From positions 686 to 64,685 of the forward strand of contig CBDVCO010000001.1 in NCBI GenBank assembly GCA_965372515.1: a stretch of 64,000 bases of DNA, in the 5' to 3' direction. The notes under the pieces were generated by a model. That model did not search any database, had not been told where the DNA came from, and saw only the letters and a program-made list of their open reading frames with translations. Both the position numbers and the translations under genes were made by a program. The first letter of the stretch is position 1, and each line of letters opens with the position of its first letter. Origin of the DNA: an uncultured bacterium. Its GTDB lineage: Bacteria; Desulfobacterota; GWC2-55-46; JAJCZF01. Below are positions 27,282 through 43,525 of the stretch, piece after piece.

Positions 27282-29390
27282 ATGACCTCGATGCCTGACA
27301 AGTACAACGCCCCCGACATTATCAAGGCGCTCTTTATCGTCATAGTGACATTTGTCGTATATATCCGGGCCATCCATGGCGGTTTTATATGGGACGATCA
27401 GACTTTTATCGTAGAGAACAGGTTCCTCCTCGACCTTGACGGGCTTTGGTCCATCTGGTTCACCACCGACCTCTCACACCAGTACTACCCGCTTGCTTCA
27501 ACCATCTTCTGGATAGAACGCCACATATTCGGCCTGAATCCAATTGGATATCACACTTTAAATATCGCCCTTCACTCTATAAACGCCCTGCTCGTTTGGG
27601 TCGCATGCCGAAGGCTAAAGCTTGGCGGGGCCTACGCTATCGCTCTGATCTTCTCACTCCACCCGGTGCACATAGACAGCGTGGCCTTTGTAAATGAAAT
27701 GAAGAACCTCGTCTCAGGGCTCTTCTACCTCTTGGCGCTCTTAAGCTTCCTCACCTTTGAAGAGAAAGGCTCAAAACGCTGGTACGCGCTCACGCTCCTT
27801 GCATTCGTATTAGCGCTTCTCAGTAAGACCGTCGCCGGCACCCTGCCGGCCGCGCTCTTGATAATACGCTGGATGAGACATAAAGATATAGGCCCCGGCT
27901 ACATCCTGAGGCTTGTACCGTTCTTTATTATAGCCGCCGCCTTCGCCGTTGTGACAATAGCCGTTGAGGTGGAAAATACCGGAGTGGATATCGGCATCAG
28001 CTTTGCACAGAGGCTGCTTGTAGCAGGGCGCGCCTCCTGGTTCTACGCGACGAAGCTTATATATCCAATGAAGCTCTCATTTATCTACCCGCGCTTTACT
28101 CCCGATATCACGAGCTTAACCCAATGGGCCTACCCGCTCGGGGTCGTGGCCCTAACGCTTCTACTCTTTGGCTTAAGAAAGAGGCTCACTCGCGCGCCTG
28201 TGGCCGCCGTAGCCTTTTTTCTCGTTACCATCTTCCCGGCCCTGGGCTTTGTCGACATAAACTTCTTTAACTACTCTTACGTAGCCGACCACTTCCAGTA
28301 TCTGGCCAGCCTTGCGCTCATAGCGCTCGCAGTCGGTGTTATTTGCCGCCTGATCAAAAACCTGCCAGGGCCCGTAGCTTACATAACGGCAATCTCAATA
28401 GTCTTTATCCTTGGAGTGCTTACCTTGAGCCGCTTAAGCGTGACCACGAACCACGAATTGCTCTGGAGGGATACCATAAAAAAGAACCCCGCGTCATGGG
28501 CGGCACACAACAATTTCGGCAATCTCCTCTTCGCCCAAAAACGCATACCGGAATCTATAAAAGAGTTTCAAATGTCGATCAGCATAAACCCCTACAGTGA
28601 GAAAGCCAGAGGCAACCTCGCTAACGCCTTGACCGAGACCGGCCGCTTTGATGAAGCGATAGACCAGTACGAAGCGGCGCTAAGGATAACCCCGGACAAT
28701 CCGCTCACGCTTATTAATATCGGCATAAATTACACACTGCAAAACAAATTCGAAGAGGCCGTCCGGAAATTCGAGCGCTCCATAGAGCTAAACCCTTATG
28801 ATTCATACGCTTTTTATAACTACGCACTGGCGCTTACGGGGCTAAATAGAGCAATTGATGCTGAGCGCGCCTATCTAAAGGCCATAGAGCTAAACCCCGC
28901 GGATACGGATTCAAGAAATAACCTGGCCAATATATACATGGACAAAAATGACCTTGACCGGGCTATGGCGCTCTACACTGAGGTGATAGAACTGCTCCCG
29001 ACCCACGCCCGGGCCAATAATAACCTCGGCATTATCATGAGCATAAGAAAAGAATACGAATTAAGCCTCTCCTACTTTGAGGTGGCCATAAAAGCTGACC
29101 CGGAATATGCCGATGCCCATTATAACTTCGCGATAACGCTTGAAGATATCGGCAGGCATAAAGAGGCCCTGGAAAAATACCAGGCGGTCTTAAGGCTTGA
29201 ACCGGACCACGCTGAAACAAATAATAATATCGGCTCCATCCTCTTAAAAGAGGGCGATCACCAGGCAGCGAAAGGATATTTTCAACAAGCGCTAAGGCTA
29301 GACCCGTCAAGCCCGATATACAAAAAGAACCTGGAGATCGCAGATAAACTCACCAGGGGCGACAGGGCCCGCGGCCTTAAAAGGCATTAA
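27282..29390 (+). CDS. TMTC/PMT-like GT-C glycosyltransferase-fold membrane domain (DUF1736-like) fused to C-terminal TPR repeats, 702 aa.
   Basis: About 11 TM N-domain with a loop-1 acidic motif (GGFIWDDQTF), then at least 8 TPR repeats. Paralogue of 41417..43525. Confidence 0.6.
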   Translation: MTSMPDKYNAPDIIKALFIVIVTFVVYIRAIHGGFIWDDQTFIVENRFLLDLDGLWSIWFTTDLSHQYYPLASTIFWIERHIFGLNPIGYHTLNIALHSINALLVWVACRRLKLGGAYAIALIFSLHPVHIDSVAFVNEMKNLVSGLFYLLALLSFLTFEEKGSKRWYALTLLAFVLALLSKTVAGTLPAALLIIRWMRHKDIGPGYILRLVPFFIIAAAFAVVTIAVEVENTGVDIGISFAQRLLVAGRASWFYATKLIYPMKLSFIYPRFTPDITSLTQWAYPLGVVALTLLLFGLRKRLTRAPVAAVAFFLVTIFPALGFVDINFFNYSYVADHFQYLASLALIALAVGVICRLIKNLPGPVAYITAISIVFILGVLTLSRLSVTTNHELLWRDTIKKNPASWAAHNNFGNLLFAQKRIPESIKEFQMSISINPYSEKARGNLANALTETGRFDEAIDQYEAALRITPDNPLTLINIGINYTLQNKFEEAVRKFERSIELNPYDSYAFYNYALALTGLNRAIDAERAYLKAIELNPADTDSRNNLANIYMDKNDLDRAMALYTEVIELLPTHARANNNLGIIMSIRKEYELSLSYFEVAIKADPEYADAHYNFAITLEDIGRHKEALEKYQAVLRLEPDHAETNNNIGSILLKEGDHQAAKGYFQQALRLDPSSPIYKKNLEIADKLTRGDRARGLKRH

Positions 29391-29505: not shown

Positions 29506-30150
29506 TTGAATAAGCCTGTACGCAAGAGAGTTCTAAAGACAATATTCGCCCTCTTCTTTCTGTGCTTCCTCTCTATTTCAGGATGCGAGAGTTTGAAGGA
29601 GGCGCTCGACCATAAATACTATCCACCCGGAAGCCTTGACGAAGAAGGCAAAGTAAAGACCAGCCAGACCGACAAGACCGAATACTACAACAAGTTCTAT
29701 GCTCAAATAACGCGCAGATTCACTATGAAGCAAGGAGAGATGAGAAATGTCACGCTCGATAGCCTTCCCAAAGGGCACGGAGGAGAGATCAACTGGACAG
29801 CCGCCGTGCTGGAGGGCTATATCAGCCCGCGAGGTTCGCTCGACCCGGACGCTGAAGAGGTACCCCCGCTCGACCTGAATATCTTTATAGAGGCCAAGGT
29901 CCCTCTGATGGCAAATGTGCTGTTTCCCCACTCTATCCACACGTACTGGCTTAGTTGCAACAACTGCCACCCGAAGATATTCATCCCGCAGGCCGGAGCC
30001 AACCCGATCAGCATGAACGAGATCTTCGAAGGCAAATGGTGCGGCCGGTGCCACGGCAAGGTGGCCTTCAAATTCTTTCCCATCGCCAATTGCAGGAGGT
30101 GCCATATCGTCATGAAATATCAATCCCTTGAAGAAGAGCACTTTAGATAG
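29506..30150 (+). CDS. Lipoprotein with a C-terminal triheme cytochrome c7-like (cytochrome c3 family) domain.
   Basis: Lipobox ISGCE. FPHSIH...CNNCH...CGRCH...CRRCH matches the c7 (PpcA-like) heme arrangement. TTG start with an AGGGAG SD. Confidence 0.65.
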   Translation: MNKPVRKRVLKTIFALFFLCFLSISGCESLKEALDHKYYPPGSLDEEGKVKTSQTDKTEYYNKFYAQITRRFTMKQGEMRNVTLDSLPKGHGGEINWTAAVLEGYISPRGSLDPDAEEVPPLDLNIFIEAKVPLMANVLFPHSIHTYWLSCNNCHPKIFIPQAGANPISMNEIFEGKWCGRCHGKVAFKFFPIANCRRCHIVMKYQSLEEEHFR

Positions 30151-30207: not shown

Positions 30208-31071
30208 ATGGGCACTATCGGGCCAGCGAGTTTACTAATGATAGATAGAAAAACCCTGGAGATAAGTTCCTTCTCGTTCTTTCTTCTGATTATTATCTCC
30301 ATCTATTCCATTTTGACTTACGAGAGAAACTCCCACTGGGCCGACGAGTTGACCCTGTGGGAGGATGCGCAATTAAAATCACCATCTAAATCAAGGCCTT
30401 ATACCTACGCAGGTGTTGCTTACGCAAAAGATAAACGCCTGAAGGAGGCCTACAATAACCTCTCTCGAGCGGTTATGCTAAACCCGGCCGATATAGAGGC
30501 CAGATATAACCTCTCGATATTATATATGGAGCTTGGGAGATTTGATCTTGCTGAGGTTGGGTTCAAAAACGCCATAGAGAGCAGGCCGGAACTCAAAGAG
30601 TCCTATCTGGCGCTCTTTGACCTCTACTCTAAACAAGACCGCCCCGAGAAAGCGGCCTCCATTCTCGCTAGCGCCCAGTCCATGTGGCCTAATAATATAG
30701 GGATACGCCTGAAACTCGCCACCGCAAACGCCAGGAGCGGAAAGCTAAAAGAGGCTAAAGAGGGATACAATTGGGTTTTAAAGCGCGCTCGTGCCCGGAC
30801 GGAGGCGATAAGCGGACTCGGCAACATATATATGCTTGAGGGAAACTACACCCTTGCGCTCTCATATTACGAAAAGGCCATTGAGCTTCGCCCAGGCGAC
30901 CCGGTTGCCATCTACAACGCGGCACTTGTCTCAGAAAAACTTGGTGATAATGAGAAGGCCCTGAAATTCTACGCTCTCTTCATCAAGGCCGCTTCGGCTT
31001 CTGCCGAGCCTTATAATGAAGCCGTAAGAAATGCAAGGGAACGGGTCATACAAATAAGATCAGGTAACTAG
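30208..31071 (+). CDS. Membrane-anchored TPR-repeat protein (alternative start at 30238).
   Basis: One N-terminal TM helix, then about 6 TPR repeats. Confidence 0.5.
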   Translation: MGTIGPASLLMIDRKTLEISSFSFFLLIIISIYSILTYERNSHWADELTLWEDAQLKSPSKSRPYTYAGVAYAKDKRLKEAYNNLSRAVMLNPADIEARYNLSILYMELGRFDLAEVGFKNAIESRPELKESYLALFDLYSKQDRPEKAASILASAQSMWPNNIGIRLKLATANARSGKLKEAKEGYNWVLKRARARTEAISGLGNIYMLEGNYTLALSYYEKAIELRPGDPVAIYNAALVSEKLGDNEKALKFYALFIKAASASAEPYNEAVRNARERVIQIRSGN

Positions 31072-31225: not shown

Positions 31226-32284
31226 ATGATAAAAAATAAGCTCCTAAAGATACTCTTCTCTCTTGCCGTGCCTTTGATGCTCTTCAGCTGCGGAGAGCCG
31301 AAGCTGAAAGAGCTCGTATGGCCCAACCTCCCGGACATACCTAGAATCAGGTACGTAAAGAGCTATCGCGGCCCTTCGGACATAGTTAAGAAGAGTTTCC
31401 TCATAGAGTCCCTGCTTGGCTCTTCAGGGTCGGTACGCTTTAGTAAACCGATGGGCATACTCTACGACGACAAAAGAGACAGGCTCATAATTGCGGACAC
31501 CGCCAAAAAGACCATCTTTATCATGGACAAAAAAAATGAGAGCTATTCAGCCCTGCACATAAGAGGCAGAGAGGCGTTTACTAAGCCGATTACCCCCAGA
31601 CTGGACTCCAAAGGCAGAATATTCGTCACAGACAGCGCCGGCAAACAGGTTTTGATGTTCACCAATGCCGGCAAATACATAAAACATGTCTTCAAGGACG
31701 GCAGATGGACAAGGCCCAGCGGAATCGCAATAGACAAAAAAAGAAAGAGGATCTACGTCTCAGACACGCACAAGCACAGGATTCAGGTATTTGACGAAGA
31801 TAGCCTGAAACTCATCCAGACCATAGGGGGCATACGTGGAACGGAAGAGGGGGAGATGAACTTCCCCACACACATGTTCGTCAATAAAAATAACGGAGAC
31901 CTGCTAGTCACAGACACAATGAACGCCAGGGTGCAGATCTTTGACTACAAGGGACGTTTTAAACTCACATTCGGCCAATTCGGCGACGGGCCCGGATTTT
32001 TCGCTCGTCCCAAAGGGATCGCCGTAGACTCTGAAGACCATATCTATGTAGCGGACGCGGGCTTCAATAACATTCAAATATTTGATTACGAAGGCAACAA
32101 CCTCATGGCCTTTTCAGGCTTCGGACGGGGTAGAGGGGCCATGATCCTTCCTGCCGGGATCTATATAGACGATGACGACATTATCTATGTATCCGACTCC
32201 TTCAATGAAAGAATTAATATCTATGAATTCATGGGGGATAAGTACAAAGAGAGGAAAAAGAAGGGTATAGTCCTGGATAGATGA
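31226..32284 (+). CDS. NHL-repeat (6-bladed beta-propeller) lipoprotein.
   Basis: Lipobox LFSCG. Repeated YV(S/A)D...(I/V)Q(V/I)FD NHL blades. Confidence 0.65.
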   Translation: MIKNKLLKILFSLAVPLMLFSCGEPKLKELVWPNLPDIPRIRYVKSYRGPSDIVKKSFLIESLLGSSGSVRFSKPMGILYDDKRDRLIIADTAKKTIFIMDKKNESYSALHIRGREAFTKPITPRLDSKGRIFVTDSAGKQVLMFTNAGKYIKHVFKDGRWTRPSGIAIDKKRKRIYVSDTHKHRIQVFDEDSLKLIQTIGGIRGTEEGEMNFPTHMFVNKNNGDLLVTDTMNARVQIFDYKGRFKLTFGQFGDGPGFFARPKGIAVDSEDHIYVADAGFNNIQIFDYEGNNLMAFSGFGRGRGAMILPAGIYIDDDDIIYVSDSFNERINIYEFMGDKYKERKKKGIVLDR

Positions 32285-32477
32285 TTTGCGTGCAGGGGCC
32301 TTTAGCGTAATACGGATGCAAATTTACTCCCCGCCAGGTCAATAATAGCGTAACCAACTGTAATATATACACAAGTTCACCTCCACGCAAGCACTTATCC
32401 GGCAAGCCAACCCCGCCTTATCCCCCAATATTAAGAAAAAAATGCACGATATTGATTAAAATCCGTTAATTTTTTCC

Positions 32478-32506
32478 TTGACAGATTTTAATATTGGGTA
32501 TAATAT
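32478..32506 (+). promoter_or_regulatory. Sigma-70-type promoter (TTGACA, with TATAAT at a 15-nt spacer or TAATAT at 17 nt) about 270 nt upstream of the tetraheme cytochrome gene.
   Basis: Consensus hexamers read directly from the sequence. It implies a 5' leader of about 265 nt. Confidence 0.45.
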
Positions 32507-32648
32507 TGGTAGTAACTACGGATCAACATGGCTCATGAAGGGCCCTCTAGCTCCGGAGTACATAGAGGTTATGTACCTGTCGATTCATGACGGATCAGCA
32601 GGTATTAATGGCGATGATGCCGCAATACTGCCTACGGCTGGCAGTTTT

Positions 32649-32677
32649 GAAGGTATTTTTTTATTTAAAATACCTTC
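32649..32677 (+). promoter_or_regulatory. Perfect 11-bp AU-rich hairpin (GAAGGUAUUUU/AAAAUACCUUC) in the long leader of the tetraheme cytochrome gene.
   Basis: Inverted repeat read directly. It overlaps the 3' end of a possible 51-codon uORF. Confidence 0.4.
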
Positions 32678-32777
32678 AAAAGACGACTGACGAGGGTTGT
32701 CTTCCAGATCTACCGTCCCTTTATAGTAAAGAGACGGAGATTAAAAAGATTTAGTTGTTTTTGAAAGGAGTTACACA

Positions 32778-33719
32778 ATGAAAAAGCTACTTACTTTTGC
32801 AGTAGGTCTCGGCCTCGTCTTCGCCGTAGCCAGCACAGCGTCAGCCATTACAAATCCTACAGACTACTCTGATGGCGACATAGCTAACGGTATTGTAAAC
32901 TCAAGGCACAACCTTGGTTCAACAGGCGTTCACTTCAGGGCCGACAACACGAACTCATCAACCGACACTGCTTCAGGCGGCGGCGGCACGAGTGAGGTCT
33001 GTATCTTCTGTCACACTCCTCACCACGGTTCAACCAACGCTCCGTTGTGGAACAAAGGCTCACAGTCTACAGCTAACTACACAACCTACGGTACAACGGT
33101 TGGCGGAACAAGCGCCGACACCACTCCTGGCGCCGCGACACTCGCGTGCTTGAGCTGCCACGATGGTGTTAACACCTTTGACACCATTGTCAACTGGCCT
33201 GGTAAGAGCGGTACGGGTACCAACGATAACGGCGGCGTGTCAACAGACATGGGCTGGTTATTCACCGAAGATGGTAACACCATGAGCGACTACATGACTT
33301 CAGGCAGGTTGAACCTCGGTACCGATCTACGTAATGACCACCCGGTATCCATAACCTACACTGAGGACAGAGCGTCACTCAGGCCTGTAAGCACTCAGAT
33401 CACCAGTGTAACCATGGAGAACGATGTGCTTACCGTTGTAGCGACCACATCAACATCAGCCACGACAACTGAGAACCTGTGGGCTGTAGGTGGTTACCTT
33501 GACGGAACCGCTTCCATTGACGGTATCCTCAGGAACGGTAAGGTCGAGTGTTCTTCATGCCACGACCCGCACTTCAAAAACCAGTCTTGGGATGAAGTCG
33601 CCGGTACATGGGGCGGTGGTAATGTCGTTGATGGTTCAGACGACATGGACGGTCTCTTCCTTAGAAGGGTCGGCGGTAACAGTCTCAGCGGTGTATGCAG
33701 AACCTGCCACAACAAGTAA
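32778..33719 (+). CDS. Secreted Thr/Gly-rich tetraheme c-type cytochrome of the doubled-CXXCH family.
   Basis: Sec signal ending ASA. Four CxxCH motifs (CIFCHTPHH, CLSCH, CSSCHDPH, CRTCH) with the SRHNL...C.FCHTPH pattern. Poly-Thr/Gly linkers. AAGGAG SD. Confidence 0.65.
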   Translation: MKKLLTFAVGLGLVFAVASTASAITNPTDYSDGDIANGIVNSRHNLGSTGVHFRADNTNSSTDTASGGGGTSEVCIFCHTPHHGSTNAPLWNKGSQSTANYTTYGTTVGGTSADTTPGAATLACLSCHDGVNTFDTIVNWPGKSGTGTNDNGGVSTDMGWLFTEDGNTMSDYMTSGRLNLGTDLRNDHPVSITYTEDRASLRPVSTQITSVTMENDVLTVVATTSTSATTTENLWAVGGYLDGTASIDGILRNGKVECSSCHDPHFKNQSWDEVAGTWGGGNVVDGSDDMDGLFLRRVGGNSLSGVCRTCHNK

Positions 33720-33772
33720 TTGTTCTGGCATAAGAAAAAAGAAAACGGTTAGAGCTAAAGATAACCGTTTAG

Positions 33773-33811
33773 AAAAAAAAGACGGGCCGTTCTTCGGCCC
33801 GTCTTTTTTTT
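33773..33811. terminator. Strong bidirectional intrinsic terminator.
   Basis: A8-GACGGGCCG-ttctt-CGGCCCGTC-T8, preceded by a second hairpin at 33743-33770. Confidence 0.8.
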
Positions 33812-34115
33812 ATCTTCTCTTTGCCTTTCTCCGTCAATAACCAGAGAGAGATAAGCCGCGCCAAATTAAAATCTTTTAATAACCGCCTAATCATGATTTT
33901 ATGCTATCCGGTTAAAATAGTGCCAGAATATTAATGTCTTACAGGTACTCGCGGGGCTATATATTTGCAGATCATACCGTTAAAAATATCTTTCGTTCTT
34001 AACGCACTCGAGAATTTATCCTTATTGACAAGAGATAATCGCTACGGGAACCATAACCACCTTGCCACCATTACTTAAACGGGTGTCAAGACAAACTCTT
34101 ACGGAGACAGTCGCC

Positions 34116-35159
34116 ATGAAGAAATTCTTTTCCCTCTCTCTATCTTTCATTCTACTGCTAACCTTATCCATCGGTCTATATATATCGGAGGTCAAGGCTG
34201 AAGAGGGCACATCTGCCGAGCAAACCCCCGCGGATGAAACATATGACCCTGATAAAGATCTCGTGGCAAAGGTAAACGACCATGAGATAACATATACAAA
34301 CTTCCAGATAGCCATAAACAACTTAATGCCAAAATTGGCCTATCATAAGTCAGTCAGTGAAAGACGCATGAAGATGATAGAAGAAAAGGCCCTGAATAAT
34401 CTTATAATGGACCATCTACTCTATGAAGAGGCAATAAATAGATCCATCAAGGTAACCAAAAGAGAGATCAAACAGGCAACAAGAAATTTTCAAAACAAAC
34501 TGCCAAAAGGCACGACTCTTAGAAAGGTATTGAAACAAAGCAATATGACCAGAGATGACCTTAAAGAGGTATTTAGAAGGTCGATGCTGATCCGGAAGAT
34601 CAGAGACGAATCAAACGAGGAATTCAACAAAAAGGTAGAAGAGCGGGTCAACGAAGAGTACATGAAAGAGTACTATGACAATAATCTCGACAAATTCGTA
34701 GAGCCTGAGAAACTACACCTGAGCGAGATACTCTTGAAGGCGGATCCTTCAGGCGGCAAGAGGCACTGGCTGGAGGTAAGGGATCAAACACTCGCCGTAG
34801 AAGCCAGAATTCGTGGTGGCGCTGACTTTGCCGAGGTGGCAAAAGAGGTCTCTCAAGACGCTTATGCTCCCAAGGGGGGCGATATGGGTTGGGCGCACTC
34901 AGGTACCCTGACAGTAGGACTTGAGGAAGCGGCACGAAAGCTTAAAGCCGGAGAGATAAGCGGTCCGATAGAAACACTCTACGGCTATCACATCATAAAA
35001 CTTCAGAAAAGAAAGCCCAAAAAGCTTAAGCCGTACGATGAATTGAATCATGAGAAATTGAAGAAAGAACTCAATATGTCCGAGTATAAAAGGCTAAAAG
35101 ATGAATGGCTTGATTCTCTTAAAGAGAAGGCCGTAATCGTATATTTTGATGATAAATAA
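34116..35159 (+). CDS. Periplasmic SurA/PrsA-like peptidyl-prolyl cis-trans isomerase (parvulin/PpiC type).
   Basis: Signal peptide, SurA-N-like helical domain, parvulin domain (GGDMGW...GYHIIK). GGAGA SD before ATG 34116. Confidence 0.7.
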   Translation: MKKFFSLSLSFILLLTLSIGLYISEVKAEEGTSAEQTPADETYDPDKDLVAKVNDHEITYTNFQIAINNLMPKLAYHKSVSERRMKMIEEKALNNLIMDHLLYEEAINRSIKVTKREIKQATRNFQNKLPKGTTLRKVLKQSNMTRDDLKEVFRRSMLIRKIRDESNEEFNKKVEERVNEEYMKEYYDNNLDKFVEPEKLHLSEILLKADPSGGKRHWLEVRDQTLAVEARIRGGADFAEVAKEVSQDAYAPKGGDMGWAHSGTLTVGLEEAARKLKAGEISGPIETLYGYHIIKLQKRKPKKLKPYDELNHEKLKKELNMSEYKRLKDEWLDSLKEKAVIVYFDDK

Positions 35160-35649
35160 GAATCCACATCTTCTAATTACGGCTTTTACGGCTGCCTTGC
35201 TCCTTTCATTTGCCGGTGGTTGCGGTCAGGATAGGGCTGAGAAGAGTTCAAAAAAAGAACCTCTTGCCGCCAGCACTACCCCGGCCAGCTACGTTAAAGA
35301 GATACCTCCGGCAGAGCCTGGAGATATTGCTCTAGGCAAGCTCGTCTATGAAAAACACTGCCATTACTGCCATGGAAGAAAAGGGCGTGGCAAAGGTGCG
35401 GTCTCAATAGCGGTCGTCCCTAACCCGGCCGATTTTATACGCGACGAAAAACGTATGGCAGTAACCGACGAAGCACTCTTTAAGTCATTGACATACGGGA
35501 TTACCAAGGAGAGCGGCGGACAAAAGCTTGAGAAAGCGCTGGCAATGCCTCCTTTTAAGGGGGTCTTAACAGTCAAAGAACGTTGGGACGTTATTGCCTA
35601 CATAAGGGAGCTTGTCAGAGAATCAGGGAGCGAAAAAAAAGAAAATTAA
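35146..35649 (+). CDS. Monoheme class-I cytochrome c lipoprotein.
   Basis: Lipobox FAGGCG, single CHYCH heme site, distal Met region (LAMPPF). Overlaps the PpiC gene by 14 nt. Confidence 0.6.
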   Translation: MMINKNPHLLITAFTAALLLSFAGGCGQDRAEKSSKKEPLAASTTPASYVKEIPPAEPGDIALGKLVYEKHCHYCHGRKGRGKGAVSIAVVPNPADFIRDEKRMAVTDEALFKSLTYGITKESGGQKLEKALAMPPFKGVLTVKERWDVIAYIRELVRESGSEKKEN

Positions 35650-35683
35650 CTACATTTCTTATTATTTATAAAGCTTTAGACTT

Positions 35684-35692
35684 TGTTATAAT
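35684..35692 (+). promoter_or_regulatory. Extended -10 promoter element (TGtTATAAT) upstream of the cyt-FGE operon.
   Basis: TGnTATAAT read directly, about 107 nt upstream of ATG 35799 in an AT-rich spacer. Confidence 0.3.
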
Positions 35693-35798
35693 GAGGTGTA
35701 TATGATATAATTTCTTTAGCAATTACAATATCTTAAGCAATAGACAACTATAGACTGACATCAGGATTAGACCGGCCTTCTCTCAATATCTTAAATGG

Positions 35799-36818
35799 AT
35801 GGATACCCCAATGAAACATTCAAGTTTTAAAAGATTATCTTCTTTTCTACTCTTTTTCGCCGTTCTCCTAATCTCCATGCCTGCCTTTTCAAACCCGAAC
35901 GATTACCATCCGGAAACCGGCGAGCCCAAGTGCATGAACTGCCATACCCCTGATAGAAAATACTCAATAGATTATACACGCCAGGAGAGTTGCGCCGAGT
36001 GCCACGGATCAGGCTTGAGCGAACGATATCTATCCATAAACGGGCGCTATCAAAAGATAGAGGATCATGCCGGAAACGAGCCCATAATAGTGGCAAAAGT
36101 GAACTCGGCTAAAAAAAATCCAACCAAAGCCTCCACAAAGGAGATGATCCTTATAAAGGCAGGCGAATTCACCATGGGGTCTAACGACTGGTGGCCCAAG
36201 AGCCAACCGGAGCACAAAAGAGACCTGAAAGCATTTTATATAGATAAATTCGAGGTGACCAACCGCCGCTACATGGAATTCGTCAAGGCTACCGGCTACC
36301 CCCATCCAAAACACTGGAGAGGAGGAGTAATACCGCCGGACAGGCTGGAACACCCGGTAACTTATGTAAACTGGTTCGATGCCGATAATTTCTGCAGGTG
36401 GGAGGGTAAGAGGCTTCCCACCGAACCTGAGTGGGAAAAGGCGGCCAGAGGAACCGACAAAAGGACCTTTCCGTGGGGCGATAAATTCGATAAAGAGAAA
36501 GGGAATACGCCGCAATACGGCCACGGCGATACTCTACCGGTTGGGAGCTTTACCAGCGGTGTAAGCCCCTACGGTGCCCATGATATGGCCGGCAATGTCT
36601 TTGAATGGTTAAGCGACTGGTTTCAACCGTATCCCGGGAACAACCACCCGGATGAAAACTACGGCGAGCTGTACAAAATTGTCCGCGGCGGTTCATGGTA
36701 CGACTGCACATATTATAAATGCGGAATCAGCGCGCCTACCTATAACCGTATATTCTTCAACCCCTACACAAAGAACAATAATTTCGGTTTCAGATGTGTG
36801 AAAGATGATAAGAAATGA
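35799..36818 (+). CDS. Exported fusion protein: N-terminal diheme cytochrome c plus an FGE-sulfatase (SUMF1/formylglycine-generating-enzyme family) domain that retains the Cys-x4-Cys pair.
   Basis: Signal peptide, CMNCH and CAECH heme motifs. FGE-family core (HPVTYVNWFDA..FCRW.GKRLPTEPEWEKAARG; RGGSWYDCTYYKCG; FGFRCVKD). Confidence 0.65.
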   Translation: MDTPMKHSSFKRLSSFLLFFAVLLISMPAFSNPNDYHPETGEPKCMNCHTPDRKYSIDYTRQESCAECHGSGLSERYLSINGRYQKIEDHAGNEPIIVAKVNSAKKNPTKASTKEMILIKAGEFTMGSNDWWPKSQPEHKRDLKAFYIDKFEVTNRRYMEFVKATGYPHPKHWRGGVIPPDRLEHPVTYVNWFDADNFCRWEGKRLPTEPEWEKAARGTDKRTFPWGDKFDKEKGNTPQYGHGDTLPVGSFTSGVSPYGAHDMAGNVFEWLSDWFQPYPGNNHPDENYGELYKIVRGGSWYDCTYYKCGISAPTYNRIFFNPYTKNNNFGFRCVKDDKK

Positions 36819-38401
36819 AAAACTCTGAGAGAGAATTAAAAAACGGTGCCAGGTTCTTCGTCTTTACAACCTTTGTAAGCGGTGCCGTTATAATGGTCGT
36901 TGAGTTGCTAGGCTCAAGGATTATCGGCCCTTCTTTCGGAGTAAGCCTCTTCATCTGGACTTCTCTTATAACCGTCACTCTTGTGTCCCTCGCACTTGGT
37001 TACTGGCTCGGCGGGAAGCTCGCCGACCACAAGAGCTCCCCTACCGTACTCTTCACCATCATCCTCGTTGCCGGACTCTCACTCCTGCTGGTCCCGCTTA
37101 TAAAGAGCTTTATAATTTCCAACGCCCTCTTTCTCGGACTGAGGCTTGGCACCCTTGTAAGTTCTTCCATACTTTTCGGCCCGCCTCTCTTCCTCCTTGG
37201 CATGGTAACGCCCTATATTGTAAAGCTCAGCTTCGAGGACAAAACTACAATTGGAAAGACCGTCGGGTGGTTATATGCCATCAGCACGGCAGGGAGCGTA
37301 GTCGGAACCGTCTTAACCGGTTTTCTACTGATACCGAGACTTGGGGTAGACAATATAGTATACCTATCTTCGCTGGTACTTATTTCCTTAAATGCGATCT
37401 ATTGGCTCTTTTTTAAGAATCGATACATCTATCTTTGCCTGATTTTAATTCCTGTTGCGCTGATACTGATGCCTGAGAGACAGTTAAGTGTCTTACGCGA
37501 AGATGGTACCAAAGTCTCTGTTAAAGTTAATAAGGACAGCCCTTACGGACAAATCAAGGTGGTTGATTACTCATACGGCGACACACTTTACAGGGAATTC
37601 CTTATTGAGAATATAATACAGGGAGGAATTGACGTCAACTCCGGGTTATCGATCTTTAAATACCAATACCATCTCGAACAACTCGCGCACGCGTACGCAA
37701 ATGACGCCAGCAATGCATTAATAATAGGGCTTGGCGCCGGAATCGTGCCCCAAAGGTTCAAGCAGTTTTATAATATAAAGAGCGATATCGCCGAGATCGA
37801 CGAGATGGTGGTTAAGACGGCCAAAGAATACTTCTTTTTTGAACCGGATGAAGGCTCTGTCTTTACGCTCGACGGCCGTTACTTTCTACGCTCAACCAAT
37901 GGACGTTACGACATAATAATACTGGATGCTTTCTCAGGGGACAGTCCGCCAAGCCATATGGTAAGCATTGAAGCCTTTGAGCTTATGAAAAAGAGACTCT
38001 CACGAGACGGAGTATTACTCATTAACTTCCTTGGAAGCAATGAGAAAGAGAATACGTTTGTCCTTTCATCACTTGATAAGACACTAAGGGAGGTTTTTAA
38101 CTTTGTCGATGTCTATGTATCGGAAGAGTACTATCATCAATCGGCGCGGATCTTGAATTTTACATTTGTAGCCTATCTTGAAGACAAGAAGAAGGGAAAA
38201 AAGCTATCAATTCGCCCGCCTATACACGCGCAGTTCACCAGGGACCTGGAGGGACTTCTTGACAGACGGATTTTACTTTCCGGCGACGCCATTACACTTA
38301 CGGACAACTACAACCCAATCGACTTCTACGACATGAAAATGAGAGAATGGCTCAGGGAAGAGAGCATAAAAACAGCCGATCGAATGATTGTCGTTCATTA
38401 G
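36815..38401 (+). CDS. Fused multi-TM membrane domain plus spermidine-synthase-like (aminopropyltransferase-fold) domain.
   Basis: About 7-8 TM N-terminus, then a SpeE-like Rossmann core (LIIGLGAGIVP...DIIILDAF). Start overlaps the upstream gene by 4 nt. Confidence 0.6.
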   Translation: MKNSERELKNGARFFVFTTFVSGAVIMVVELLGSRIIGPSFGVSLFIWTSLITVTLVSLALGYWLGGKLADHKSSPTVLFTIILVAGLSLLLVPLIKSFIISNALFLGLRLGTLVSSSILFGPPLFLLGMVTPYIVKLSFEDKTTIGKTVGWLYAISTAGSVVGTVLTGFLLIPRLGVDNIVYLSSLVLISLNAIYWLFFKNRYIYLCLILIPVALILMPERQLSVLREDGTKVSVKVNKDSPYGQIKVVDYSYGDTLYREFLIENIIQGGIDVNSGLSIFKYQYHLEQLAHAYANDASNALIIGLGAGIVPQRFKQFYNIKSDIAEIDEMVVKTAKEYFFFEPDEGSVFTLDGRYFLRSTNGRYDIIILDAFSGDSPPSHMVSIEAFELMKKRLSRDGVLLINFLGSNEKENTFVLSSLDKTLREVFNFVDVYVSEEYYHQSARILNFTFVAYLEDKKKGKKLSIRPPIHAQFTRDLEGLLDRRILLSGDAITLTDNYNPIDFYDMKMREWLREESIKTADRMIVVH

Positions 38402-38436
38402 TAGAGGAACACAAATATAATATGGGAGAAAAATTA

Positions 38437-39243
38437 ATGAATCACCTATTTCATCAAGCAAAGATAAAATCGAAATTCTACCTTCCTCTTATGGCTATCC
38501 TGATCCTTTTATCCGGCTGCTCAAGGCCTCCTGAAGGAATGGTCAATATCGCCGAAGGGGAGACTATTATTGGCAGCAACGAGATAGACGCCGAAGGTAA
38601 GGCCATACAGTACGGTAATAAGAAACCGTGGTTTCTAAACGAACATCCGGAGCACAAGATCATTGTAAAAGAATTCTATATAGACAAGTTTGAAGTAACA
38701 AATAAAGACTATCGGGAATTCGTAGCCGCCACAAATCACAGAGCACCTTCCTACTGGCAACAAGGTTCGTTCCCGTCCAACTTGTCAGACAACCCTGTCA
38801 ACATGATCAGTTGGTTCGATGCAAAGGCGTACTGTAAATGGAAAAACAAGCGGCTGCCAACCGAGGCTGAGTGGGAAAGAGCGGCACGCGGGAACGACGG
38901 AAGAAGATTCCCATGGGGCAACGACTTCGACCTCAAAAAGCTCAATACCATGGGGATGCACGGTGGCACTACCCCGGTAGGGACATTCATGGAAGGCAAG
39001 AGCCCTTACGGTCTCTTTGATATGGCTGGTAACGTTCAAGAATGGACCCTGGACTCTTACAAGGCGTATTCTGGAAACGATTATGAGGATAACGACTTTG
39101 GCGAAAGGTTTAAAGTAGTACGCGGTGGAGGATGGGGCGGCATAGGCCATTACGCTTCAGAGGTATATGTAAGAACCGCATACAGAAACTATGCCCCGCC
39201 GGGAGGTACCTACGATGACGTTGGATTCAGATGTGCATGGTAG
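38437..39243 (+). CDS. FGE-sulfatase-domain lipoprotein lacking the catalytic Cys pair (PvdO-like, probably non-catalytic).
   Basis: Lipobox LLSGCS. FGE core (NMISWFDAKAYCKWKNKRLPTEAEWERAARG; RGGGWGG...VGFRCAW) without the Cx4C motif. GGGAGA SD before ATG 38437. The ORF-track start at 38347 is rejected. Confidence 0.65.
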   Translation: MNHLFHQAKIKSKFYLPLMAILILLSGCSRPPEGMVNIAEGETIIGSNEIDAEGKAIQYGNKKPWFLNEHPEHKIIVKEFYIDKFEVTNKDYREFVAATNHRAPSYWQQGSFPSNLSDNPVNMISWFDAKAYCKWKNKRLPTEAEWERAARGNDGRRFPWGNDFDLKKLNTMGMHGGTTPVGTFMEGKSPYGLFDMAGNVQEWTLDSYKAYSGNDYEDNDFGERFKVVRGGGWGGIGHYASEVYVRTAYRNYAPPGGTYDDVGFRCAW

Positions 39244-39301
39244 TAATTTTAACCTGAATGACAGACTTGAAAATGTCACTTATTGATCGAGGCTCAAAAA
39301 T

Positions 39302-41284
39302 ATGCTCAACTTCAAGAACATACGGACATCTCTCGATTACGCATATTCCAGCCTATCCTCCAGAATACTGTTGTGTGGAGCTATCCTACTCTTAGTCATC
39401 CTGTTTAAACCAACTCTGTCATATAGCCGTTTAGCGCCCTTAGACCCGCGTGATCCGTATATACATAGAACATTGACCCTGGACGTGGGCTTTAATTTTA
39501 GGACCTCTTCATCCAAAATAGGAGACTTTCAGTCAAAACGAAGATGGAGCTTCGGCGAAAGCTATAAAGTATCTATACGCGGCAGCGTGATCGACCCGAG
39601 ATTTATGGTCTACGACTATTATACGTTTTATTCTCAAAGCCGGAATTCCACCAATCAAACTGGGAGCAATCTTGGCCTGGGTATAAAATCAACCATTTTC
39701 AGAAAGTTCAGATTTCCGGTTACCTTATATGAATACCGCTTTTATGGCAAAGATGTAATCAGAGATTCGTTCGGTGCCAGATCGCTCTTAAGGTTCAGGA
39801 GACTTCCTACTACCAGACTAAGAGCAAATTATGACAGGACGGAAACCGACACCAATATCTCCTTCAATTCAAACTATCAATTGAAGATGGATAAGAATAT
39901 TGGTCCAACATCTAATACGTTGAATTACGCTTATTCTATAAATGACAATGGCGCTACGCAATCTAATCTTGCCATAACCAATGGAACGCGTTTATCGCGA
40001 GCCACAAAAATGAACGCCGTTCTAGCTCATAATGTGGCCACTCCATCTGATATATCGGACGAGGACAAAACAAGTACAGGATTTACAATGTCGCTAGTGT
40101 CCAGGACGAGCGATGACTTCAGGCAGTTACACCAATATGCGGCCTACTCAAGCGAAACCACTTCGACTGAAGGAACCGTGACTGTCGATGGACAAAGCTA
40201 CAACGGAGGATGGAATTTTGCATTACTAAAAAATCTATCTACAGGCGGAGGAATATCCGTTTCAGAGAGTAATTCTCATGGCATCTCCAGTGAGAGCACT
40301 TCAGAAAGTTTTTCTGCACACTGGAACCTGAATTATACCATTACCAGGGGACTATCCCTTGTATGGGACTCATCATATCGAAGCACTCGTTCAAGTATTA
40401 TCTCGATATCGACCGACGAATCGAGCAGCGAGTATTTCAATACCAACATGGGCGTTACGTACTCTAGACGGATTCGCTCCGCCTCATTCTCATCAAGTTA
40501 TAGGGTCGGCTATGTTGAAGAGCTCTCCCTGCCTCTTAATGGCGGAGGAACAGGACTACGTCAGGGGATTAGTTTAGGTCTAGGCAACCTACATTATAAA
40601 AAAGTCTACGTCAATACCTCGTACAATGCAAGCCGCGTTGACGTTCTGACTGGCGACATCTGGTCCACATCACAATCCCTATCCGTTACAGCAACACCAA
40701 GATACTGGACAAAATATGGAAGCATAGGCTCTTCATATAGATTCAGAACCTCTAGGAACTGGCGTAACCCTGAAGCGGTCTCATCACATAATTTAAACTT
40801 TAATGCCAGGAGCAGAGAAATAAGAAGGACAAGAGGATCTGCAAGCCAGAACTTTTCAATAGAAAAGTCCGGTCATTTAAGCGATTCTACAAATAAAATA
40901 AGTTCTTCCAGGCTTTCCATTTCTCACAACAGAACAGTCATGGGAGGAAAAACTCAACTTTCTTTCTTAATCAATTATCGCAAGCACGAGCATGGAAGGG
41001 CTCTTAACAAGCGTATAGATGCAAGATTCAAAGCGGGGTACTTTAGGCCACTTTTTAGGCGCGTCGCTTGGCGTTCCTATTTCGACTACTCTAGAGGCAA
41101 AGACCTTAGCAATAACACAAGCCATTCCGATACGAGCTTCGCAAACACTCTCGCATACAATCTAAGGAGTTGGAGCATTTTTGCGGAGCATCAAATTACA
41201 CATTCTTCAAGCAAGCATACCGCTACTATTATTAAAGAACAATTTATGTTAATCTTAAAAAGATCTTTCGTCAGGGGATTCTGA
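39302..41284 (+). CDS. Putative large outer-membrane beta-barrel protein, Ser/Thr/Asn/Arg/Tyr-rich, 660 aa.
   Basis: Signal-like N-terminus. Pervasive alternating hydrophobic/polar beta-strand pattern. C-terminal Phe (VRGF) typical of an OMP beta-signal. Confidence 0.45.
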   Translation: MLNFKNIRTSLDYAYSSLSSRILLCGAILLLVILFKPTLSYSRLAPLDPRDPYIHRTLTLDVGFNFRTSSSKIGDFQSKRRWSFGESYKVSIRGSVIDPRFMVYDYYTFYSQSRNSTNQTGSNLGLGIKSTIFRKFRFPVTLYEYRFYGKDVIRDSFGARSLLRFRRLPTTRLRANYDRTETDTNISFNSNYQLKMDKNIGPTSNTLNYAYSINDNGATQSNLAITNGTRLSRATKMNAVLAHNVATPSDISDEDKTSTGFTMSLVSRTSDDFRQLHQYAAYSSETTSTEGTVTVDGQSYNGGWNFALLKNLSTGGGISVSESNSHGISSESTSESFSAHWNLNYTITRGLSLVWDSSYRSTRSSIISISTDESSSEYFNTNMGVTYSRRIRSASFSSSYRVGYVEELSLPLNGGGTGLRQGISLGLGNLHYKKVYVNTSYNASRVDVLTGDIWSTSQSLSVTATPRYWTKYGSIGSSYRFRTSRNWRNPEAVSSHNLNFNARSREIRRTRGSASQNFSIEKSGHLSDSTNKISSSRLSISHNRTVMGGKTQLSFLINYRKHEHGRALNKRIDARFKAGYFRPLFRRVAWRSYFDYSRGKDLSNNTSHSDTSFANTLAYNLRSWSIFAEHQITHSSSKHTATIIKEQFMLILKRSFVRGF

Positions 41285-41416: not shown

Positions 41417-43525
41417 TTACCTTCCGGATCTTCCAATGGATTTTGCTCTATTTAGCCTGGCTTTAGCCTCTCTGTAGTCTGGATCGATCTCAAGGACCTT
41501 CTCGAAACTCTCGATTGCCGCCTCGAACTCGCCACTGTCTAAATATATAAGACCCAGATTAAAGTACGCGTCAGGCCCTTTGGGATCAACCATAACTGTC
41601 TCCTTATAGTAGCGCTCGGCCAGGCGAATATCACCGACATAGTGATAGACCCAGGCAAGGCCGTAAAGCGCCCTTGCGTTCTTTGGTTCAAGTCTCACGG
41701 CCTCTTTAAAAGAATTGATCGCACTCTGGTTATCCCCTACCTCCTGAAAACTCCATGCAAGATTATAGTGGGCAATACTACTAAAGGGATTTAACTCTAC
41801 TGCCTCTTTATAAAAACCAAGAGCGGCGGCCGGATTTCCGCTCTGCTTATAGGCCTGGGCGAGGTTGCCCCTGGCCCTCTCGTTTAATGGATTTACACGG
41901 ATTGTCTCCTTATAAAAATGAATCGCCTTCTCAACATCCCCTGCCTGATCATAAATAACCGCAAGGTTAAAAAAGGCCTTGTCGTTTAACGGATTTAATC
42001 TGATTGTCTTCTCATAGTAAGCCGCTGCATTCAATTGATCGTCCATATCATTATAAATAAGAGCCAGGTTATAGTACGGTTTATAGTTAAAGGGCTCAAG
42101 CCTGACGACCCGTTTATAGTACTCGATAGCCTCCTCGTTATCTCCCTGCTCGCGAAAAGCCGCCGCCAGACCCAGATTTACTATCGCGCTTTCAGGGGCC
42201 GAGTTTACCGTATCGGACCAAAGGCTCATGGAGTCCGTCCATACCATACTCCTCCTCACAGTAAAGACTCCGTATAGGGCAAAAATTGCGAGCAAAACAA
42301 TCAAGACGGCCTTTCGCCTCTCTGCGGCTCTCAAAAAAATGGCATGAAATATCACGGCGACTATCATGGCGAACCCGGCCGATGGCAGATAGAGATACCT
42401 GTCGGCAAAGCCGCCCGTCGAAACTACCGGTATATAGAGTACCGGCAGGAGCGGAATAATGATCCATAAAATAGGGAAGAATACGGCGGCCCTTCGCCTG
42501 AACGCCACAAGGAGCAAGCAAATAACAACCATTACCGCTATAGAGAGTAAGACCATAGGCTCGAAGAGCGAATAAAAAGGTTCAAGGACGTAGATGACGC
42601 TTAAGTTAGCGGGCCATAGGAGTTTGCCCATATAACGCAGGATTGCAGGAAAGATATTCACCATGGATCCATAAAGCCCGGTACCGGCCATCTCCTTTTG
42701 CGCAAACCCTCCAAGGGCATATGTACGAAGCACCATATAAATTACAGCCGCAAGAATATATGGGATATAGGTAAGATAGCGCTTTATGAAGGAGCGCCCT
42801 TTTGTCGAGAAGTCATAGCACCAGATAATGAGCAAAAAAGCCATGGCCGTCTCTTTACTGAGGAGCGCTATAAAGAAGAGGATAACAGAGAGAATCGTCC
42901 ATAGGGTTCTGCCCCTTAAGAACGCGTTCAGGTCGAGCCTTATGTATATATAGAAGGCCGCCAGAAGAAAGAGCGTGTATAGAAGCTCCGGAAGAGCAGA
43001 GACCCAGTTGACCACCTCGCTGTTAATGGGGTGAAGCGCGAAGATCAGGGCGGCAACAAAGGCCCAGTACGTAGCGCTTGAAGAGTGCGCCCTCTCAAGT
43101 GCAGCCTCTAGCTCCCCTTCCTGTTCCCCTTCGGACTTGTTCACCCCAAAGCCCATGGACCTAAAGAGCGTCGAGACGACGAGAAAGACGAAAAGGCTGT
43201 TCAGGGAGTGTAGGATAATATTTAAGAGATGAAAAACCACCGGGTAAAAACCGAAAAGATGATACTCGGCCAGAAATACCAGATGCATCACGGGCCTATA
43301 ATAATTTGACCCTGCCGTCTCCTTCATAAACGACCAGGAGGCGGAGAAGAAAATATCACCAAGATGCGCCGTATCGACGATCCAGGGATTGCCGAGCACC
43401 TGCTCCATATCGTCGTATACAAAGCCGTGAAATAGTGTCGGCAGATATACGATACAAGTTACTAGAAAGAGCGTAGCGAACAAAACGTATCCAACGCTCT
43501 TCTTGTGAGTTGGCAATATAGCCAT
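41417..43525 (-). CDS. Second TMTC/PMT-like GT-C membrane domain plus TPR protein, also 702 aa. Paralogue of 27282..29390.
   Basis: Same architecture (HGFVYDDMEQV loop motif, multi-TM, C-terminal TPRs). Confidence 0.6.
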   Translation of the reverse strand: MAILPTHKKSVGYVLFATLFLVTCIVYLPTLFHGFVYDDMEQVLGNPWIVDTAHLGDIFFSASWSFMKETAGSNYYRPVMHLVFLAEYHLFGFYPVVFHLLNIILHSLNSLFVFLVVSTLFRSMGFGVNKSEGEQEGELEAALERAHSSSATYWAFVAALIFALHPINSEVVNWVSALPELLYTLFLLAAFYIYIRLDLNAFLRGRTLWTILSVILFFIALLSKETAMAFLLIIWCYDFSTKGRSFIKRYLTYIPYILAAVIYMVLRTYALGGFAQKEMAGTGLYGSMVNIFPAILRYMGKLLWPANLSVIYVLEPFYSLFEPMVLLSIAVMVVICLLLVAFRRRAAVFFPILWIIIPLLPVLYIPVVSTGGFADRYLYLPSAGFAMIVAVIFHAIFLRAAERRKAVLIVLLAIFALYGVFTVRRSMVWTDSMSLWSDTVNSAPESAIVNLGLAAAFREQGDNEEAIEYYKRVVRLEPFNYKPYYNLALIYNDMDDQLNAAAYYEKTIRLNPLNDKAFFNLAVIYDQAGDVEKAIHFYKETIRVNPLNERARGNLAQAYKQSGNPAAALGFYKEAVELNPFSSIAHYNLAWSFQEVGDNQSAINSFKEAVRLEPKNARALYGLAWVYHYVGDIRLAERYYKETVMVDPKGPDAYFNLGLIYLDSGEFEAAIESFEKVLEIDPDYREAKARLNRAKSIGRSGR

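Follow-up and report, generated by a model that had tools for sequence, protein, structure and literature searches.

Long-range extracellular electron transfer rests on cytochrome nanowires. To our knowledge, structures exist for just a few of these, from two archaea and otherwise solely from cultured Desulfuromonadia. The present analysis concerns a relative of one such nanowire subunit, OmcE, and the long structured leader that precedes its gene in an uncultured bacterium (GTDB lineage Desulfobacterota; GWC2-55-46; JAJCZF01). The stretch analysed, referred to as the window, comprises 64,000 nucleotides (nt) of contig CBDVCO010000001.1 (GenBank assembly GCA_965372515.1, positions 686 to 64,685 of the forward strand), and all positions below are those of the window. 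The reading preferred here, to which we assign a probability of about 0.62, is that the gene, part of a conserved cluster, codes for a secreted tetraheme OmcE-family cytochrome and is a monocistronic unit under transcription attenuation by its leader.

The closest described proteins are the OmcE nanowires of Geobacter sulfurreducens (GSU0618; Protein Data Bank, PDB, entry 7TFS) and Desulfuromonas soudanensis WTL (PDB entry 9YUQ; bioRxiv 10.1101/2025.10.22.684050). The same preprint takes as putative nanowire-forming OmcE homologues those proteins that have four CxxCH motifs and four further heme-ligand histidines and are encoded near a β-propeller lipoprotein and an outer-membrane porin or large β-barrel; O-glycosylation is proposed there for the G. 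sulfurreducens protein. In Desulfovibrio ferrophilus IS5, genes for NHL β-propellers adjoin those for extracellular multiheme cytochromes, an arrangement widespread in sediment bacteria, and the propellers have been proposed as a scaffold for outer-membrane cytochrome complexes (Deng et al. 2018, PMC5815863). With regard to RNA, many Geobacter cytochrome genes are switched on by GEMM-Ib riboswitches for cyclic GMP-AMP (cGAMP) through terminator/antiterminator switching (PMC6456294), and small RNAs (sRNAs) that derive from 5' untranslated regions (UTRs) and also attenuate in cis are documented (PMC8265627 and PMC11394854).

The elements of the cytochrome gene and its leader in the window are as follows.

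32455-32470, + strand: AT-rich inverted repeat ATTAA-N6-TTAAT, directly 5' of the -35 box, found by reading the sequence
32478-32506, + strand: sigma-70-type promoter, -35 box TTGACA at 32478-32483
32512-32777, + strand: conserved structured 5' leader of about 266 nt, start approximate
32530-32544, + strand: helix P1, GGCUC-AUGAA-GGGCC; pair 2:14 is AU in 3, GC in 3 and GU in 3, with 100 % of cells paired
32535-32690, + strand: 51-codon open reading frame (ORF) MKGPLAPEY..., ATG at 32535, stop at 32688-32690, judged spurious
32573-32605, + strand: helix P-A, 13 pairs, apical loop AUGAC; 7/13 pairs with double-sided changes
32609-32622, + strand: helix P-B, UGGC-GAUGAU-GCCG, almost invariant, overlapping the 5' arm of the leader terminator
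32616-32662, + strand: predicted leader intrinsic terminator; hairpin 32616-32657 (segment X GAUGCC, P-C, segment Y GGUAUU) running into U7 at 32656-32662
32624-32648, + strand: helix P-C, the inner helix of the terminator; pair 108:120 is AU in 4, GC in 4 and GU in 2
32645-32681, + strand: AU-rich hairpin P-D, 15 bp, -16 kcal/mol, z = -5.5
32681-32702, + strand: helix P-E, 8 pairs, 2 with double-sided changes; 97.5 % of cells paired
32713-32737, + strand: helix P-F, CCGUC.CUU ... AAG.GACGG, from alignment and pair analysis
32764-32770, + strand: Shine-Dalgarno (SD) sequence AAAGGAG, 7 nt before the ATG
32778-33719, + strand: gene for the OmcE-family tetraheme c-type cytochrome, 313 amino acids (aa)
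33743-33770, + strand: first 3' hairpin (AAACGGUUA ... UAACCGUUU), conserved, with compensatory changes in locus L003
33773-33811, no strand assigned: strong intrinsic terminator, 17-bp stem with A8 and T8 flanks, potentially bidirectional

As with the GEMM-Ib (cGAMP) and GEMM-I (cyclic di-GMP) riboswitches (RF01051), a long 5' leader stands before a gene for an extracellular multiheme cytochrome, with an intrinsic terminator as expression platform, a competing fold and a default that is presumably OFF (PMC6456294). The leader differs from GEMM in having no sequence or structure match to it: no riboswitch covariance model matched at E <= 10. No Rfam family was found in the leader even at that E value, where the hits were solely look-alikes of miRNA-precursor hairpins, and nothing in the whole window reached an Rfam gathering score. 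The order of elements also differs (P1, P-A, P-B, the terminator and then a hairpin that would form by refolding after it), and the leader may not be a riboswitch at all. As in D. ferrophilus IS5, an NHL β-propeller gene stands beside that of an extracellular multiheme cytochrome, whereas the cytochromes of IS5 are larger OmcS-like multihemes rather than OmcE-like tetrahemes, and no leader RNA is described for them.

The four CxxCH motifs of the cytochrome lie at residues 75 (CIFCH), 124 (CLSCH), 258 (CSSCH) and 307 (CRTCH); they contain all eight cysteines of the protein, which has ten histidines. It begins with a Sec-type signal (MKKLLTFAVGLGLVFAVASTASA|ITNP; MKK...ASTASA|ITNP) and is rich in threonine (14.1 %), glycine (12.8 %) and serine (9.9 %). 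The first-pass annotation of this DNA, made from the sequence alone and without database searches, had described a Thr/Gly-rich tetraheme cytochrome with a Sec signal, which is what was found; the CxFCHTPH style that it gave to all four heme sites belongs to the first motif only, the others reading CLSCHDG, CSSCHDPH and CRTCHNK. Its label of a doubled-CXXCH cytochrome was upheld in part: Pfam Paired_CXXCH_1 scored 27.7 bits against a gathering threshold of 20.6, over short stretches, whereas NCBIfam TIGR01905 stayed below its cut-off (19.5 vs 25.2). With matches so weak and of so generic a multiheme kind, the label is taken to be weakly informative.

A search of all PDB sequences returned only two significant matches, namely 7TFS (E = 1.8e-15 with phmmer, 1.9e-21 with a 61-sequence profile) and 9YUQ (E = 1.5e-11 with the single sequence, 7.1e-17 with the 61-sequence profile). 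OmcE is also the only structural match, and the fold is assigned to it. The four CxxCH motifs and four histidines, H44, H82, H188 and H265, were invariant in 61 homologues. These histidines, which are predicted to be the distal heme ligands, align with the OmcE motifs KHDL, CHTPH, NDHP and CH..H, and with this alignment and the homology to both solved nanowires the earlier suggestion of an OmcE-like protein proved right. The four CxxCH motifs and the four distal histidines follow the same order as in OmcE, in shared motif contexts (KHDL/RHNL, CxFCHTPH, CxSCHDG, NDHPV, CxSCHxxH and CxxCHxK), and a mostly coil fold and a Sec signal are also common to the two. The protein differs from OmcE in sequence (about 29 % identity), in the length of its mature form (about 290 aa against about 200), in four insertions (about 90 residues), including the Thr/Ser-rich VVATTSTSATTTEN and a small β unit, and in a ninth near-invariant histidine, H83 (33024-33026), which directly follows H82 (CHTPHH); in the OmcE proteins of 7TFS and 9YUQ this position reads HN or HG. 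An OmcE-like protein with nine histidines has been speculated to be a filament ‘stopper’ (bioRxiv 10.1101/2025.10.22.684050). The homologue family is large, with over 5,000 database clusters at E <= 1e-3, and the closest named relatives are metagenome-assembled genomes (MAGs) labelled ‘Deltaproteobacteria’ or Thermodesulfobacteriota. By these comparisons the cytochrome is classed as a new, longer (about 300 aa), Thr/Ser/Gly-rich variant within the known OmcE family.

Whereas the homology and the fold match are computed, we infer surface location and filament formation from homology and gene neighbourhood. The solved OmcE proteins form extracellular conductive filaments by head-to-tail polymerisation, with one heme ligated by a histidine of the adjacent subunit. 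As in OmcE clusters, a β-propeller lipoprotein and a multiheme cytochrome are encoded nearby, and a candidate for the outer-membrane barrel is also present; GT39-like and tetratricopeptide-repeat (TPR) genes occur as in the clusters of freshwater Geobacter. Unlike in OmcE clusters, the propeller is of the NHL type and is accompanied by a SurA/PpiC-type protein, FGE-domain proteins and a fused MFS/spermidine synthase, and the gene lies outside the purHDE...ffh syntenic slot of the Desulfuromonadia omcE genes. The neighbourhood was counted over 168 loci that each encode a cytochrome relative. An NHL homologue was adjacent and on the same strand in 144 of them and upstream in 120, with a median gap of 140 nt; such loci (L009, L014, L019, L028 and L043 are examples) occur in MAGs labelled Nitrospirota, Bacteroidota, Verrucomicrobiota, Planctomycetota and Desulfobulbaceae and in one Thermoplasmata archaeon. 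L048, one of five Desulfuromonadales loci without an NHL homologue, was considered as a possible canonical omcE cluster and rejected; its propeller is of the FG-GAP type, and the genes around it encode a giant multiheme cytochrome and a sigma-54 two-component system.

It is a serious possibility, although not in our view a probable one, that the protein is not a filament subunit and instead acts as a monomer, carrying electrons at the outer surface or in the periplasm together with the NHL β-propeller, like the NHL-associated outer-membrane cytochromes of D. ferrophilus. No neighbour is more conserved than the NHL partner (144 loci), such propellers have been proposed as scaffolds for outer-membrane cytochromes (PMC5815863) and the canonical Desulfuromonadales loci do without this protein. 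The insertions and the additional histidine point the same way, as does an accessory gene set unlike that of the published omcE cluster. Set against this, all eight heme ligands of OmcE are invariant, the N-terminal histidine included, no structure other than OmcE matched, a monocistronic gene with the features of high expression is what a major subunit typically has, and the published description of OmcE clusters itself includes a β-propeller lipoprotein and a nearby porin (bioRxiv 10.1101/2025.10.22.684050). Several observations nevertheless tell against a filament protein in an OmcE-type cluster. The structural model of the cytochrome reached a predicted local distance difference test score (pLDDT) of 63.5, a modest confidence, and the comparison with filament subunits proposed in the first-pass annotation gave no PDB match when run with this model in Foldseek. 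H83 might serve the heme that in OmcE requires a neighbouring subunit. The accessory genes depart from the cluster published for omcE in Desulfuromonadia, an NHL homologue was undetectable in five Desulfuromonadales loci (the propeller there may belong to another family), and the model of the candidate outer-membrane β-barrel was poor (pLDDT 47), too low for a fold search.

Upstream of the gene, the -35 box is followed by two possible -10 boxes, TATAAT (32499-32504, 15-nt spacer) and TAATAT (32501-32506, 17-nt spacer, 10/12 matches). A bare match to the promoter consensus is no better than chance (4 sites vs 3.9 expected). TTGAC was present at the equivalent position in 11/11 loci with sufficient upstream sequence, at 292-344 nt from the ATG in long-form and 215-227 nt in short-form loci, and this constancy of position in all assessable orthologous loci makes the site credible. 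The near-consensus sigma-70 promoter that had been noted about 270 nt 5' of the gene is thus present and backed by the conservation of TTGAC; it is predicted to give rise to the leader transcript, the start coordinate being approximate. The ATTAA-N6-TTAAT repeat before it is kept across the orthologous promoters, those of the most distant loci (L004, L084 and L165) included, and could be an UP element or a transcription-factor operator. An additional TTAAT lies within the promoter spacer (32488-32492).

Neither the consensus scan nor the leader alignment gave a conserved promoter between the leader terminator and the ATG, and the cytochrome mRNA must therefore derive from read-through. One internal candidate in this interval, TTGTCT-19-TATAGT, was rejected; its spacing is poor, and in four orthologues an inserted hairpin occupies its place. 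The SD sequence UUUGAAAGGA was invariant in the 10 leaders aligned. The two hairpins said to follow the gene, a bidirectional terminator among them, were found at 33743-33770 and 33773-33811, and both are conserved in relatives. Since it has its own conserved promoter and a conserved 3' terminator, the cytochrome gene is read as a monocistronic transcription unit of its own, extending from the promoter at 32478-32506 to the terminator at 33773-33811.

A gap of 320-530 nt precedes the gene in every close orthologue. The leaders of 10 loci (62-92 % protein identity) could be aligned end to end. Conservation of the long leader thus reaches to 62 % protein identity, with a short form still present at 45-49 %. 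The leader set comprised 12 orthologous loci, these 10 and the short-form loci L004 (49 %) and L084 (45 %), and could not be expanded further because the scans of genomes and metagenomes otherwise gave only relatives at <=38 % identity. RNA folding of 281 nt from 32510 gave a minimum free energy (MFE) of -93.9 kcal/mol (z = -6.25), which none of 200 shuffles equalled, so the long structured leader proposed earlier is indeed strongly structured. RNAalifold and explicit counting of pairs in the 10 leaders identified six helices (P1, P-A, P-B, P-C, P-D and P-E), in which 97 % of pair cells were paired and 15 pairs showed double-sided (compensatory) changes. When the partner was slid by 1-3 columns as a control, 38-54 % were paired, with 2-4 compensatory pairs, and 0/500 column shuffles reached the observed values. 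P-B lies in a near-invariant segment of 18 nt and shows no covariation because its bases do not vary.

A covariance model of the leader (R1) found one copy in the window (32530-32706, 184 bits). In about 1.6 Mb of fetched loci its single hit beyond the training set was that of L004 (30.7 bits). All 12 copies lie directly 5' of, and co-oriented with, an omcE-like gene, and as the model finds no others the element is clade-specific and always 5' of such a gene. The leader is accordingly proposed as a previously undescribed, conserved candidate cis-regulatory RNA. The copies include that of a paralogous omcE-like gene (L002, 7720-8930; 80 % identity) from the same metagenome as L001 and L167, which has the same promoter and leader. 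Its promoter is a perfect TTGACA-17-TATAAT followed by an 18-nt insertion, and its neighbours differ, with a TPR protein upstream and a small outer-membrane β-barrel protein downstream.

Some further features of the leaders were recorded. In L003 (4190-4240), L166, L167 and L164, P-F carries an additional hairpin (GGGAUAUC ... GAUAUCC; columns 244-280 of alignment A3) that is not in the window. An apical motif, YUC-A(U/C/A)GA(N)-GGR, is common to two leader hairpins (32530-32544 and 32583-32595), with a related UGAAGG in the 3' arm of the terminator and UGAAAGG at the SD; this repeated motif may be a recognition site for a protein or an RNA. Four other interactions were tried and rejected: pairing of segment Z (described below) with the SD region (UUUUGAAAGG), which is not kept in L004; a pseudoknot between GAAGAU of the P-B loop and GUCUUC of P-E, which shows no covariation (the window has GAUGAU); GGA sites of the CsrA type at both AUGAN loops, for which the invariant GGG of P1 is not a clean match; and the long-range pairing between the 5' end and the SD-proximal region in the MFE fold of the window, which is not conserved in L003 or L170.

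The first-pass annotation had overlooked the terminator inside the leader, located about 105-150 nt into it. When the RNA is truncated where the polymerase would reach the U-run, a 42-nt hairpin (32616-32657, -18.2 kcal/mol) is the predicted fold. The same geometry was found in 12/12 leaders, as a hairpin of 42-45 nt and -17 to -24 kcal/mol whose stem reaches 1-2 nt into a run of U5-U9; in L004 and L084 the hairpin sequences are unrelated and the geometry is kept. Immediately 5' of the U-run stands GGUAU (GGCAU in six leaders), which pairs with the invariant AUGCC (32617-32621) and so encloses P-C; this X:Y helix is compatible in 10/10 leaders (pair 97:133 is GC in 6 and GU in 4). The U-run itself is invariant, and because it is kept in L165 and L084, where it has no A-run partner, the tract must be conserved for its own sake.

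In the full-length RNA, the 3' arm of the terminator and the U-tract pair with a downstream segment, Z, which repeats the terminator's 5' arm (AUACC/AUGCC) and adds an A-run, to form the AU-rich hairpin P-D, with a compensatory pair (133:154, CG in 6 and UA in 4). This hairpin had been placed at 32649-32677 with 11 bp; it exists and is longer, with 15 bp at 32645-32681. It replaces X:Y, the base of the terminator, in the full-length MFE fold of 8/10 long-form leaders, and it is not an antiterminator because Z is transcribed after the U-tract. Two candidates for an antiterminator or effector site are the P-B hairpin, which overlaps the 5' arm of the terminator, and, for an antiterminator, pairing of GGUAU in the 3' arm of P-A (32601-32605) with AUGCC. 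The idea that the long leader implies post-transcriptional control is thus supported and can be sharpened: transcription attenuation is favoured over unspecified structure because the leader is conserved, covaries and has a premature terminator with a competing fold.

The mechanism proposed would run as follows. The strong promoter would fire constitutively or through a DNA-binding factor, and by default most transcripts would stop at the leader terminator, at about +150. An effector (a small molecule, protein or RNA) would hold the 5' arm of the terminator in another pairing and so permit read-through, after which the 3' arm and the U-tract would refold with the downstream segment into the AU hairpin. 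The read-through RNA would then be a row of stable hairpins with a free SD, and the message would end at the gene's own terminator. Leader conservation, covariation and terminator geometry are computed results; termination, the switch and its effector we infer. A number of points weaken this proposal. The sample of 10-12 closely related leaders makes for weak statistics, and their kinship inflates the shuffle controls. Variation in X:Y is one-sided (GC 6, GU 4) and is not true covariation, the terminator stem of the window, which contains G-U pairs and an internal loop, has only moderate stability (-18 kcal/mol), and a simple terminator consensus scan did not flag the leader hairpin. Both antiterminator candidates are feasible in most leaders, although L165 disrupts one of the two, and their bases are so invariant that there is no covariation. 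Both the start of transcription and its termination in the leader are themselves predictions from sequence.

It is unlikely, though worth weighing, that the leader is instead a passive mRNA-stabilising 5' UTR, whose hairpins would shield the abundant mRNA of a structural protein from RNases with little termination and nothing sensed. Such stabilising UTRs precede ompA and S-layer protein genes. The gene has the look of high expression, with a consensus promoter, an AT-rich upstream element, a strong SD and its own strong terminator; the full-length MFE fold is a row of stable hairpins that leaves the SD free, and no effector or aptamer-like junction was identified in the leader. Stabilising UTRs require a hairpin at the 5' terminus, however, and not an internal terminator. 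A hairpin followed by a U-run in 12/12 leaders, despite a wholly different hairpin sequence in L004 and L084, and a U-run that stays invariant where it has no pairing partner (L165 and L084) fit poorly with passive stabilization, and the near-invariant 18-nt P-B segment suggests specific recognition.

Distinctly unlikely, in our estimate, is that the leader is an independent trans-acting sRNA of about 150 nt, with the cytochrome mRNA arising by leaky read-through, or a dual-function RNA like Vsr217 or Rli51. It does form a complete unit from promoter to terminator with conserved structure, and 5'-UTR-derived sRNAs that attenuate in cis have precedents (PMC8265627 and PMC11394854). Rli51 (Listeria mpl) and Vsr217 (Vibrio malK) are likewise promoter-proximal structured RNAs ending at a premature terminator in a 5' UTR, their sequences and organisms being unrelated to those of the present leader. 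Against this, 12/12 copies, that of the paralogue L002 included, lie directly 5' of an omcE-like gene in the same orientation, with no free-standing copy in the window or in the 1.6 Mb of fetched loci. Conservation also extends past the terminator, through Z, P-E and P-F, to the SD, and the cytochrome gene has no separate promoter.

The leader also contains the 51-codon upstream ORF (uORF) to which the first-pass annotation drew attention; it is present in the window and is not a conserved coding feature, varying in length, start and peptide. Its frame has 15, 17, 10, 11, 12, 51, 8, 44 or 34 codons in the orthologues, with no conserved peptide, and 15 codons in a relative of 92 % identity; its start is ACG in 3/10 orthologues (L166, L167 and L165), and its ATG sits in the loop of the covarying P1 with no SD before it. 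As coding sequences, both this ORF (32535-32690), with its start in a hairpin loop and lost in orthologues, and a second one (32587-32754), whose ATG falls within the P-A apical loop and is replaced by AAG in L164 and L167, were rejected. Attenuation of the trp type, in which translation of a leader peptide from the P1-loop start would set the hairpins, could draw on complementary segments resembling 1:2, 2:3 and 3:4 pairings (GUACC, GGUAU, AUGCC and GGYAU) and on short ORFs that end near the 5' arm of P-A in several orthologues, but the ACG starts, the range of 8-51 codons, the unconserved peptide, the missing SD, the AUG within a covarying loop and the loss of the second ATG (32587) largely refute it and leave it very improbable.

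With the leader thus read as an attenuator, the genes that surround the unit are listed below.

27282-29390, + strand: PMT_2 (GT39-like) and TPR membrane protein, candidate O-glycosyltransferase
29506-30150, + strand: triheme c7-type cytochrome lipoprotein, Pfam Cytochrome_C7, three CxxCH
30208-31071: TPR protein
31226-32284, + strand: NHL-repeat β-propeller lipoprotein, lipobox LFSC, Pfam NHL E = 4.5e-31
34062-35159, + strand: SurA/PpiC-type chaperone
35146-35649, + strand: monoheme cytochrome c
35799-36818, + strand: FGE-domain protein with two N-terminal CxxCH
36815-38401, + strand: fused MFS/spermidine synthase, NF037959, 250 bits
38347-39243, + strand: second FGE-domain protein
39302-41284, + strand: 660-aa putative outer-membrane β-barrel, no family
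41417-43525, - strand: TPR protein

The cluster block is syntenic in L001, L003, L164, L165 and L004, and its downstream part (34062-41284) in L003, L164, L165 and L004. The triheme lipoprotein matched NCBIfam TIGR04257 (nanowire_3heme) with 63 bits against a cut-off of 40. The 660-aa protein had no Pfam or NCBIfam match and has three known homologues; it has an N-terminal signal or anchor and a C-terminal ...VRGF, an all-β structure of about 25 long strands is predicted for it, and a large outer-membrane β-barrel is plausible from these predictions. The conserved cluster looks like a set for the export, assembly and possibly glycosylation of an outer-surface or filament cytochrome, and the GT39-like and TPR genes together with the Thr/Ser-rich loops suggest, by analogy, O-glycosylation.

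Other details of the neighbourhood are given for completeness. The ORF of the SurA/PpiC-type protein is listed from a TTG at 34062, and the signal-peptide-like MKKFFSLSLSFILLL begins at an ATG at 34116, which is the likelier start. The trio of FGE, MFS/spermidine synthase and FGE genes (35799-39243) is also present in L003, L164, L165 and L004, and its FGE domains fell below the cut-offs for EgtB/SenA and for PorK/GldK, the ring lipoprotein of the type IX secretion system. Two ORFs at the cluster's edge, of 911 aa (43687-46422, + strand) and 296 aa (46429-47322, - strand), matched neither Pfam nor NCBIfam, and the fetched loci contained no homologue of either.

The locus is a well-defined example, from an uncultured lineage, of a longer OmcE relative with different conserved helper genes, and this helper set could reveal how cytochrome filaments are exported and assembled. 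A bolder reading, which we hold only tentatively and consider doubtful, is that the leader is a new ligand- or factor-responsive (riboswitch-like) attenuator gating a nanowire-type cytochrome, and that the NHL-linked OmcE-like proteins of about 300 aa form a second, far more widespread filament system. If this were true, the leader would be the counterpart, in a Thermodesulfobacteriota-like lineage, of the cGAMP riboswitches of Geobacter cytochrome genes, and the second system would span Nitrospirota, Bacteroidota, Verrucomicrobiota, Planctomycetota and others with assembly machinery of its own (SurA-like chaperone, FGE-domain proteins and β-barrel). The significance of the locus would rise if the leader were a ligand-sensing switch or if the NHL-linked family formed filaments. 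A leader that senses a signal would show the cue for nanowire building, and the element could also find use in the regulation of engineered conductive biofilms. The pair of NHL and OmcE-like genes spans many phyla (144 of the 168 loci), and wiring of the OmcE type may therefore extend far beyond the iron reducers that have been studied.

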